Below are positions 15,288 through 16,809 of a stretch of 64,000 nucleotides of DNA, piece after piece. This DNA is from an uncultured candidate division Zixibacteria bacterium (GTDB lineage Bacteria; Zixibacteria; MSB-5A5; UBA10806): assembly GCA_963817915.1 (NCBI GenBank), contig CAWFQL010000016.1, positions 1 through 64,000 on the forward strand, given 5' to 3'. Numbering within the stretch: the stretch's first letter is position 1; each line of letters begins with the position of its first letter. The notes beneath the pieces are model-generated. The model saw only the letters and a program-made list of their open reading frames with translations. It was not told the origin of the DNA and did not search any database. The translations under genes and the position numbers were made by a program.

Positions 15288-15779
15288 CTATTGAACAGTT
15301 ACAGCGCCGTGCATTGTAGAATGTATAGCGCAATGATAATCAAAGACCCCGGCCGTCGCAAAAACATGCCGATAGGTCATTCCGGGCGCGATACCGCCGC
15401 TATTCAATTCAGCACCGGTATTCGAGGTTACCGTATGAGTGATGGTGTCGTTATTGGTCCAAACCACTGTATCTCCGTGTGCGACAGAAACACCGGCTGG
15501 GGAGAACGCGAAATATGCTACACTGACTGAATAAGAGTGAGCGGTACTTCCGCCACCACCACCACCTCCATTGCCGCCACCCGGGGGAGGCGGAGGAGGA
15601 TTATTATTATAGGGGCTGGTAGAATTGCTTTTACCTCCGCAGGCCATGGCGATAACCAGGCTTAAAATCGCGACAAATGATATTGCCGCTATCGTTCTGA
15701 ATGCCCTACCTTTTAACATTTTCTTCTCCTTCATATTGCTGTCTTTTTTTACCATTCTGATATTGAAACTCATTTTCAA
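15288..15779 (-). CDS. Plastocyanin/amicyanin-like cupredoxin lipoprotein; start probably ~15718-15733
   Basis: Lipobox 'AMAC', Pro/Gly linker, type-1 Cu ligands in 'HTVTS' and 'YHCAIHSTMHG'. Confidence 0.85.
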   Translation of the reverse strand: MKMSFNIRMVKKDSNMKEKKMLKGRAFRTIAAISFVAILSLVIAMACGGKSNSTSPYNNNPPPPPPGGGNGGGGGGGSTAHSYSVSVAYFAFSPAGVSVAHGDTVVWTNNDTITHTVTSNTGAELNSGGIAPGMTYRHVFATAGVFDYHCAIHSTMHGAVTVQ

Positions 15780-15869
15780 TATGTCCTGTTCCGACTATTC
15801 TTTATGTCAAAGGCAATAAACTCAATTCTGTGTTAAATGACCGGTGAATTGGCCTGGTAACCTGACGGC

Positions 15870-15903
15870 AAAAAAAATACGCAGGAGCTTTATCGCTCCT
15901 GCG
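15870..15903 (-). terminator. Rho-independent terminator between the two cupredoxin genes
   Basis: CGCAGGAGC/GCTCCTGCG stem followed by a T8 run on the minus strand. Confidence 0.75.
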
Positions 15904-15939
15904 CCCTGATTTCCATGAAGGAGGTTTTAAGTGTAATTA

Positions 15940-16308
15940 TTAAGGCACTATCACCACACCATGCATGGAAGTGTGAATTGTGCAATGATATGTATATGTC
16001 CCTGCGCTCATGAATATATGCTCAAAAGATGACCCCTGCCCTATTACCGGGCTCTGGAGTTCGGTGCCGGCGTCTGATGTTACGGTATGCCCCGCGCTGT
16101 CATTATTACGCCAGGTTACCGTATCTCCCACTGCCACAGTATCGATTGCCGGCGAGAACGCGAAATTGGTGATATTAACAAGATGGGTTGGAGGAGGCGT
16201 AGATACTGAATTTGTCGATTTATTCTTGCTGCATCCCTGAAACGCTATAATGCCGACTATCGTCATGATTCCTAAAATCCCGTAAATTCTGATTTTTCTC
16301 GATGTCAT
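15940..16308 (-). CDS. Plastocyanin/amicyanin-like cupredoxin lipoprotein (paralogue)
   Basis: Lipobox 'FQGC', 'HTVTSD', 'YHCTIHTSMHG'. Confidence 0.87.
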   Translation of the reverse strand: MTSRKIRIYGILGIMTIVGIIAFQGCSKNKSTNSVSTPPPTHLVNITNFAFSPAIDTVAVGDTVTWRNNDSAGHTVTSDAGTELQSPVIGQGSSFEHIFMSAGTYTYHCTIHTSMHGVVIVP

Positions 16309-16350
16309 TTTTATACTCCTATGCCCGAACCTGAATCCCTTTTAGACTTA

Positions 16351-16378
16351 TATACCCGATTTCAGATGCAGAGGTTCC
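16351..16378 (-). promoter_or_regulatory. Possible ECF-sigma promoter of the cupredoxin gene
   Basis: GGAACC-N16-GGTATA on the minus strand. Confidence 0.35.
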
Positions 16379-16449
16379 GCCTCTTCAAAGAATTTAGACC
16401 CGGAATTATGAGTTGATCATGTGCGATTTTGGGGGCATTTGTTGGCCAT

Positions 16450-16479
16450 AAAAAAACCCTGCCTATATTAGGCAGGGTT
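16450..16479 (-). terminator. Rho-independent terminator closing the ncRNA candidate
   Basis: AACCCTGCCTA/TAGGCAGGGTT stem ending in a T7 run on the minus strand. Confidence 0.8.
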
Positions 16480-16487
16480 CATATTTA

Positions 16488-16669
16488 GGCCGGCAGAGGG
16501 AATTTGAAAATACACACTCTTTTTAGCTACGATAAAGGATTTTAATGCCACCGAATCTATTCTTGCATTCGCTCGCCTCGGAACCCGAGGGTCGTGGCGT
16601 GAGCTCAAGGCCCGGGTGCGTCCTTCATTGGAAAAGTGTTAGGTTTTCAAATTTGCCTCCGACCGGCAC
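16488..16669 (-). ncRNA. ~180-nt highly structured non-coding RNA (6S-like size, family unassigned)
   Basis: The ends pair in a long interrupted helix containing G-U pairs that work only on the minus strand; internal hairpins; upstream TTGCTT-N16-TACCTT promoter; downstream terminator; no ORF in the track. Confidence 0.6.
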
Positions 16670-16809
16670 GCTTTAAAGGTAATTCGTGATGTCAAAAAAG
16701 CAAGTTAATTCATTATTAATATCGGCAGGAATTGACCCACTTTAATCTATAAAAAAATATAAATTTGCTTAGTTGTCTCAAGTGCCAGCGGCTTTTCGCG
16801 ATATATTTC

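Follow-up and report, generated by a model that had tools for sequence, protein, structure and literature searches.

The window analysed here, a stretch of 64,000 nucleotides (nt) from an uncultured candidate division Zixibacteria bacterium (contig CAWFQL010000016.1, assembly GCA_963817915.1), carries on its minus strand a predicted gene for a small structured RNA. Comparison of homologues indicates that the product is a real, structured RNA of about 185 nt folded as an unbranched rod, and its family is new, lying outside Rfam 15 and not found in the literature searched. We lean, with somewhat better than even confidence, towards reading it as a 6S-type RNA that has diverged far, present in Zixibacteria and some Latescibacterota and predicted to bind RNA polymerase, because of its shape, size and copy number, its near-universality in the phylum, the empty 6S slot and its mutual exclusivity with matches to RF00013, the Rfam model of 6S RNA. 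A reading made earlier from the letters of the window (the sequence-only reading) had proposed a structured RNA of unassigned family, some 180 nt long and transcribed on its own, which the present analysis supports, finding no Rfam family for it, and had hesitated between a divergent 6S RNA and an undescribed class, both of which are still live.

Two covariance models were used, R1, based on 20 sequences from the window's own family and the sister one, and R2, a broader model from 61 sequences. Read along the minus strand, the locus consists of TTGCTT, a 16-nt spacer, TACCTT, the RNA body, a terminator hairpin of 12 base pairs (bp) and a U run, and the minus-strand sequence is as the sequence-only reading described it:

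16698-16703, minus strand: -35-like hexamer TTGCTT, read in the sequence and aligned in 22 relatives
16676-16681, minus strand: -10-like hexamer TACCTT, a weak match of the TAnnnT type, read in the sequence and aligned in 22 relatives
16487-16670, minus strand: RNA body, 184 nt, a full-length match to R1 (181.2 bits) and R2 (152.4 bits)
16447-16480, minus strand: intrinsic terminator from the terminator scan, with a stem-loop of 12 pairs at 16454-16480 and a U run to about 16447

The promoter spacing places the predicted 5' start of the RNA at about 16668-16672. A generic promoter scan missed the site because TACCTT fits the consensus at just three of six positions. The promoter letters proposed from the sequence alone are present at 16703-16676, and 48 of the 61 homologues have a like site (TTGnnn-N15-19-TAnnnT) just upstream of the RNA. 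The terminator that had been called strong is equally recognizable, with 12 pairs and a U run at 16480-16454, and a strict script found, for 39 of 59 homologues, a hairpin and U run no more than 80 nt downstream, two of the 61 loci having been dropped for short or masked sequence; the terminator sequences differ, and a few further ones, with interrupted U runs, were seen by eye. When 22 relatives are aligned, the -35/-10 pair and a terminator occupy the same places, the RNA's centre hardly varies and the closing arm shows paired substitutions. Because promoter and terminator keep their positions while the neighbouring genes vary, the locus is taken as a separate transcription unit with its own predicted promoter and terminator. 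The model matches range from 169 to 226 nt (median 185, n = 61), in agreement with the roughly 150-200 nt expected of a 6S RNA, and the 184 nt of the window's copy would grow by about 40 nt if the terminator were retained. A small protein is improbable: the AUG inside AAUGAAGG opens, as judged by eye in the window, a frame of only 7 codons, some Latescibacterota members have lost this AUG, and the substitutions are of the compensatory type expected of an RNA.

Three parts make up the rod, namely a closing arm, a centre that is partly unpaired and an apical arm with its capping hairpin, with helices named P1a to P5 and loops B1 to B4 from the ends inwards:

16636-16667, minus strand: closing arm, 5' strand, with P1a at 16660-16667, P1b at 16656-16658, P1c at 16646-16652 and P1d at 16636-16639, from covariation
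16620-16635, minus strand: centre, 5' side, with loop B1 at 16628-16635 (8 nt), P2 (UGAAGG) at 16622-16627 and loop B2 at 16620-16621 (2 nt), from the 61-sequence alignment
16547-16619, minus strand: apical arm, with P3 at 16608-16619/16547-16558, P4 at 16597-16604/16565-16572 and the P5 hairpin at 16585-16590/16576-16581 with its loop at 16582-16584; P3, P4 and P5 covary
16516-16546, minus strand: centre, 3' side, with loop B2 (AUUAAAAU) at 16539-16546, P2 (CCUUUA) at 16533-16538 and loop B1 at 16516-16532, from the 61-sequence alignment
16489-16515, minus strand: closing arm, 3' strand, with P1d at 16512-16515, P1c at 16502-16508, P1b at 16497-16499 and P1a at 16489-16495, from covariation

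The minus strand of 16488-16672 folds at -62.1 kcal/mol, against a mean of -49.9 (standard deviation 4.2) for shuffled sequences (z = -2.88, equalled by 1 of 200 shuffles), and for the plus strand z is -1.88, with 7 of 200 shuffles folding equally well. The single-sequence minimum free energy structure reproduces the stacked closing helices of the sequence-only reading. RNAalifold applied to a MAFFT alignment of 20 sequences gave 48 nested pairs, 14 of them with compensatory changes. A structure of 54 pairs was then scored on 61 sequences aligned to R1, an alignment fitted to the model and hence biased towards the structure: 88.3% of the cells are paired versus 73.5% in shuffles, compensatory changes on both sides occur in 40 of the 54 pairs, and the covariation score is 0.415 versus 0.159 for shuffled alignments (none of 500 reaches 0.415) and 0.07-0.10 with slid partners. 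An independent alignment of 55 core sequences made with MAFFT only recovered P2, P3, P4 and P5, with compensatory changes in 11 of 21 pairs. Covariation among homologues, the kind of evidence that the sequence-only reading had asked for, is in favour of a conserved RNA structure. The minus-strand orientation argued earlier from G-U pairs is borne out as well: the reverse strand of a homologue scores 28.9 bits versus 133.2 bits for the forward strand, and a G-U pair persists in 59 of the 61 sequences.

Covariation backs the pairings GCCGGUCG/UGCCGGC, AGG/CCU, AUUUGAA/UUCAAAU, ACAC/GUGU (P1d) and UGAAGG/CCUUUA, as well as the hairpin CCUCGG-GUU-CCGAGG, with compensatory changes in 8/8 pairs of P1a, 3/3 of P1b and 5/7 of P1c. 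The four stacked closing helices proposed from the single sequence are largely retained, the third of them being kept only in its first 4 bp, ACAC/GUGU, and the hairpin CCUCGG-GUU-CCGAGG survives as P5. The remainder of the proposed interior does not: the GCCAC/GUGGC stem and the CGAAU/AUUCG hairpin find no support and give way to the pairings of P3 and P4, and the alternative ACCCGGG/CUCGGGU helix is likewise unsupported. In P3, GCACCCGGGCCU (the 5' stretch) pairs with AGAUUCGGUGGC over 12 bp including internal mismatches, and in P4, GCUCACGC pairs with GCGAAUGC over 8 bp; P4 contains a 3x3 internal loop in the window's family and its sister family, and in other families it is a continuous helix. 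The helices all nest without a branch point, so the branched apical part, which came from the fold of one sequence, is replaced by a long, irregular, unbranched rod. The branched part had been the main argument of the sequence-only reading against 6S, and its replacement moves the RNA towards 6S.

The central region amounts to 16 nt on the 5' side and about 31 nt on the 3' side, of which 8/17 nt (B1) and 2/8-9 nt (B2) are unpaired. The 3' strand of B1, 17 nt long, opens with a conserved nCGUA; B2 is 2/8 nt in the window, its 3' strand having 9 nt in most homologues. In the apical arm, B3 is 3 nt/6 nt in the window and B4 reads CACGAC/CGA there (16591-16596 with 16573-16575), most homologues having CGUGAC on the 5' side and n-A on the 3' side. 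P2 is invariant among the 61 Zixibacteria sequences and thus uninformative on the helix within that phylum; it covaries in Latescibacterota, where an A-U pair becomes G-C in 3 of 8 sequences and a G-U pair becomes G-C in 2 of 8, which shows it to be a real helix. Refolding with RNAalifold produced a short UAAA/UUUA hairpin in the 3' strand only when the 5' strand of P2 was blocked; the fifth pair of this hairpin lacks covariation, and nothing else conserved appears.

Several stretches are conserved in sequence as well as in pairing. A-UGAAGG is kept in 59-61 of the 61 sequences, CCUUUA in all 61 and the C-G-U that follows it in 57-60, while the U-A-A of loop B2 is found in 59-61; the G-A on the 5' strand of B4 and the A-G-C-G that follows P5 on the 3' strand are present in 61/61. 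In B4, the invariant G-A follows a 3-nt bulge and an invariant A precedes GCG on the 3' strand, an arrangement (16591-16596 with 16573-16575) that makes a putative kink-turn, as judged by the consensus rules for that motif. As a separate observation made by eye, in the 3' strand of B1 of many homologues (L132, L137, L150, L156 and L165 among them) a variable stretch after the conserved CCGUA can fold back on it (CCGUA...UACGG) into a small hairpin; it is missing from the window's own family, and it is reminiscent of the hairpin that Bacillus-type 6S RNAs have in the 3' strand of their bubble.

The window's genome (G000; 3.33 Mb in 22 contigs, 93.9% complete) contains a single copy, the other 11 matches being at most 25 nt long with E >= 0.03. 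A BLAST-level search detects the RNA in 23 of 61 genomes, the window's included: 12/13 of its own family, 9/10 of the sister family and one weak match elsewhere. R1 reaches much further, giving exactly one match, nearly always full length, in 148 of 151 genomes of the phylum (Candidatus Zixiibacteriota), across 87 of 88 genera and 19 families. Four Zixibacteria genomes, three from the survey of 151 and one from the BLAST survey, have no match even with R2; they consist of 100-540 contigs each, and three of them have congeners that carry the RNA. Two wide pattern scans of genome contigs yielded 20 family members among 75 loci and 14 members among the 100 scored of at least 120 loci. The records with near-identical RNAs are mostly of Candidatus Zixiibacteriota, a few being named 'uncultured Ignavibacteria' or 'uncultured bacterium'; metagenome-assembled genome (MAG) records of the former kind (L187, L212, L214, L252, L265 and others) score high, and their titles may be mislabelled Zixibacteria. 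One homologue (L020, in G006), whose 3' half is masked with N, was excluded from all alignments.

None of the 4227 families of Rfam 15 matches the 64-kb window at its gathering score. Under permissive settings, 16350-16800 gave 16 matches, all below gathering and nearly all on the terminator, and at E <= 10 neither RF00013 nor RF01685 (6S-Flavo) matches that segment or the RNA of 20 diverse homologues. The strong RF00013 hit that, for the sequence-only reading, would have made it an ordinary 6S RNA is absent. The 6S slot of the window's genome is likewise empty, with no RF00013 match at E <= 10 and no RF01685 match, while signal recognition particle RNA (67.3 bits), RNase P RNA (262.3 bits) and transfer-messenger RNA (185.6 bits) are found elsewhere in it. 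Across the phylum, RF00013 passes its cut-off in 0 of 151 genomes, by a model that is insensitive and detects 6S in only 4 to 7 of 14 control genomes; the lone weak match (G168, 19.6 bits, E 0.116) is on a different contig from the RNA. Zixibacteria and Latescibacterota are uncultured phyla, widespread in sediment and soil, and to our knowledge their genomes are annotated without any 6S RNA; the literature search found no paper joining Zixibacteria, or the names of phyla in the FCB group (Fibrobacteres-Chlorobi-Bacteroidetes), with 6S RNA.

Counts for the phyla sampled are given below, the phylum labels beyond Zixibacteria being those of the record titles of the seed genomes:

Zixibacteria (seed G000): RNA in 148/151; RF00013 at E <= 0.1 in 0/151; both in 0
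Latescibacterota (seed G169): RNA in 18/41, full length; RF00013 in 6/41, full length, 22.7-43.2 bits, sub-threshold; both in 0
Gemmatimonadota (seed G171): RNA in 0/41; RF00013 in 13/41, 6 of them over the cut-off; both in 0
Eisenbacteria (seed G254): RNA in 0/41 (R2)
Bacteroidota (seed G170): RNA in 0/61 (R2)

Two independent Latescibacterota records (L250, L260) also match R2. None of the 233 genomes of the first three phyla has both the RNA and an RF00013 match at E <= 0.1. The zero overlap of 18 and 6 among the 41 Latescibacterota genomes has, by hand arithmetic, a hypergeometric probability of about 0.02, which is a hint only, the genomes being related. Some features of the Latescibacterota loci were also recorded. 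RF00013-type RNAs adjoin dnaG in 4 of the 6 loci, where a sub-threshold RNA of 176-180 nt is convergent to the gene (L180, L182, L183 and L184, in G189, G208, G178 and G199, respectively), and a tRNA gene lies beside it at L180 and L183, the two loci scanned with Rfam; this dnaG-side RNA is probably the 6S RNA of that lineage, one that the Rfam cut-off misses. The R2-type RNAs of the same phylum adjoin pyrF, GAF-domain or other genes. One genome (G174) has two full-length copies of the latter type, on contigs C8 and C229 (85.2 and 66.8 bits), the only such genome seen, which could reflect a paralogue or a mixed bin.

Expression was sought in public sequencing runs, as the sequence-only reading had suggested. 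No run contained half of the 601-nt query, and 12 runs contained parts of it. Among four runs that were examined, one, a metatranscriptome, has a 151-nt contig that matches 16526-16656 without a difference, besides another piece with 5 differences; the material is all contigs, from which ends, strand and level are unreadable and in which DNA carry-over is possible. Three of the four runs cover just the RNA gene with a short part of its promoter side, without the wider flanks, and one DNA run includes a relative's contig that has 21 differences and extends to 16820. The identical contig is compatible with transcription, as no more than a weak hint.

If the RNA is of the 6S type, it would be an abundant housekeeping RNA that, as a rod with a partly open centre, imitates an open promoter and so binds and sequesters the sigma-A/sigma-70 RNA polymerase holoenzyme, RNA polymerase being the predicted partner. 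The region held open on the enzyme would comprise B1 (8/17 nt), UGAAGG/CCUUUA and B2 (2/8-9 nt), and if P2 were melted there, the open region would measure about 16 nt/31 nt. The conserved, single-stranded UAAAA of the 3' strand of B2 (UAAAAU in the window) would lie directly 3' of the apical-side helix, on the strand corresponding to the non-template strand of a promoter, with the P4/B4 region roughly 25-30 nt upstream of it on that strand; such positions are those expected of a -10-like and a -35-like element in an open-promoter mimic. More speculatively, then, UAAAA may act as a -10-like element and the invariant P4/B4 region of the apical arm as a -35-like element, and short product RNAs may be templated from the 5' strand towards the closing arm.

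Several results weigh against a 6S-type RNA. Its homology to 6S is not detectable by RF00013, RF01685 or R2, as judged from model searches in which R2, with filters off, also fails on nine RF00013 loci (best overlap 8.0 bits, E 2.1) from Acidobacteriota and Planctomycetota (over the cut-off), Bacteroidota (near the cut-off) and the six sub-threshold Latescibacterota. The centre is split by the 6-bp P2, leaving 8 + 2 nt unpaired on the 5' strand versus 16 in the RF00013 consensus. The primary sequence is conserved to an unusual degree (UGAAGG, CCUUUA, nCGUA, GUGAC, AGCG), which recognition by a dedicated protein could explain as well. The exclusivity test is weak, being counted on related, non-independent genomes, and 17 of the 41 Latescibacterota genomes have neither RNA. 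Within that phylum, the RF00013-type and R2-type RNAs have no common genomic position or neighbours. Finally, no ZapA, 5-formyltetrahydrofolate cyclo-ligase or RNase Y is encoded beside the RNA in the window or at 41 further loci scanned with Pfam, so that the lack of the usual 6S neighbours claimed earlier is borne out there, although it is weak as an argument.

These points lend some weight to a different reading, to which we give clearly less than even credence: a new housekeeping RNA class with a function unrelated to 6S, serving Zixibacteria and some Latescibacterota as a phylum-wide subunit or scaffold of a ribonucleoprotein. A dedicated protein would read the invariant loops nCGUA, UAAAA and GUGAC/AGCG, and these lineages would truly be without 6S, a version that we likewise hold to be possible and not probable. 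The RNA resembles none of the 4227 Rfam families, R2 scores nothing on true 6S RNAs, a real helix interrupts the centre, and the paired and unpaired motifs are more conserved in sequence than a mimic of shape needs; the family is confined to two phyla among those sampled, and the Latescibacterota genomes with neither RNA (17/41) mean that 'one of two' is no rule. However, no candidate partner gene travels with the RNA, the neighbours being variable, and the kink-turn of B4 is putative, judged by consensus rules. A new class would also leave a whole phylum without detectable 6S beside an unexplained RNA of 6S size, shape and copy number, and it does not account for the mutual exclusivity with RF00013 matches. 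The reading as a divergent 6S-type RNA is the one we prefer.

The gene neighbourhood bears on another possibility, that of a cis-acting leader. In the window, two genes for lipoproteins with cupredoxin/plastocyanin domains lie downstream of the RNA on the same strand, 145 nt away, and a divergent gene for a NosD/beta-helix protein with a secretion tail lies upstream. A structured RNA followed by a terminator at such a distance from two same-strand genes could be read as a riboswitch or attenuator that controls the cupredoxin genes via the terminator at 16454-16480. This is very improbable: there is no constant downstream gene family among 63 homologous loci examined, the downstream genes being often convergent or unrelated and cupredoxins occurring only in the window, the sequence of the terminator varies freely, and the closing arm is paired end to end, with a spacer before the terminator and no conserved alternative pairing with it. 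A leader or riboswitch was rejected on the variation of the downstream genes across homologous loci.

By eye, the downstream open reading frame (ORF) in most loci of the window's own family is NAD-dependent epimerase-like, and in the sister family a divergent upstream ORF of about 125 amino acids is AcpS-like. A Pfam scan of 81 flanking ORFs of the 41 further loci found ACPS at 5 loci, Phosphoribosyltransferase at 13 and Class II aldolase at 5, the rest being unrelated. As to the window itself, the two cupredoxin genes (15288-16308, minus strand) are small, tandem, lipoprotein-like plastocyanin/cupredoxin genes, one with a long Gly/Pro-rich linker, and opposite them are NosD/beta-helix proteins with secretion-system sorting tails.

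The long pairing of the RNA's two ends resembles both the inverted repeats of a mobile or repeated element, such as a miniature inverted-repeat transposable element (MITE), and the stem of a Y RNA, the partner of the Ro60 protein. Either origin is very improbable. The compensatory changes preserve RNA pairs, G-U included, and the single copy in 3.33 Mb, repeated as one per genome across the phylum, led to the rejection of a MITE, the copy count being the check that the sequence-only reading had proposed for this case. Bacterial Y RNAs of the YrlA type likewise have internal loops and a long stem in which the 5' end pairs with the 3' end. They differ in that the window's genome has no Ro60/TROVE gene (no match to PF05731 at E <= 0.001, with Deinococcus and Bacteroides controls detected), the ground on which a Y RNA was rejected, and in that the Zixibacteria RNA has no tRNA-like domain. 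Phylum-wide universality is also not known as the usual pattern of Y RNAs.

If the RNA is a 6S RNA, it would imply that an open-promoter mimic can drift to a helix-closed centre and a long, sequence-conserved apical arm, and the model would serve for annotating hundreds of MAGs. If it is not, it would be a new core RNA with another partner. Either reading is testable with in vitro transcribed RNA and polymerase, and no culture is needed.

6S RNAs are described as rod-shaped and about 200 nt long, with a relatively unstructured central bubble that separates a closing stem from a capped apical stem; the -35-like region is placed in the apical arm and the -10-like region on the 3' strand of the bubble, whose 5' strand is the template of the product RNAs, their synthesis unwinding the closing-side helix (PMC8876501). 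In the RF00013 consensus, closing helices lead to a bubble with 16 nt on its 5' strand and 13 nt on its 3' strand, and the apical arm measures 73 nt. The Zixibacteria RNA is like 6S (SsrS) in its size of about 185 nt, in being an unbranched, irregular rod whose centre, between the closing arm and the capped apical arm, is partly unpaired, and in having one gene per genome, with its own predicted promoter, that is near-universal in its lineage; it is found only in genomes where RF00013 finds nothing. It is unlike 6S in showing no covariance-model similarity in either direction, in a centre of 8/17 + 2/8-9 nt split by a 6-bp helix versus a 16/13-nt bubble, in a shorter closing arm and a longer apical arm, and in its other conserved motifs and gene neighbours.

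Two known RNAs show how a 6S-like molecule can escape ordinary searches or take the place of 6S. Diverged members of known RNA classes frequently escape searches by homology, and 6S-Flavo is listed as such a case (PMC2864571). Like the Zixibacteria RNA, 6S-Flavo (RF01685, of Bacteroidetes) is a 6S-like RNA restricted to one lineage within the FCB group and missed by ordinary searches for 6S (PMC2864571), and the argument, from shape and an empty 6S slot, is of the same type. It differs in that RF01685, a model of 108 positions only, matches neither the locus nor the window's genome, and in that R2 finds nothing in 61 Bacteroidota genomes. Ms1 of Actinobacteria is longer than the Zixibacteria RNA, and no Rfam family matched the locus. 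Ms1 is described as a 6S-like rod standing in place of 6S in a phylum without 6S, one that binds the RNA polymerase core and not the holoenzyme (PMC4191392, PMC9130861). The likeness to the Zixibacteria RNA is thus that of a 6S-like rod filling the place of 6S, and the unlikeness is that Ms1 is a binder of the core, while the Zixibacteria RNA would, if it is of the 6S type, bind the holoenzyme.

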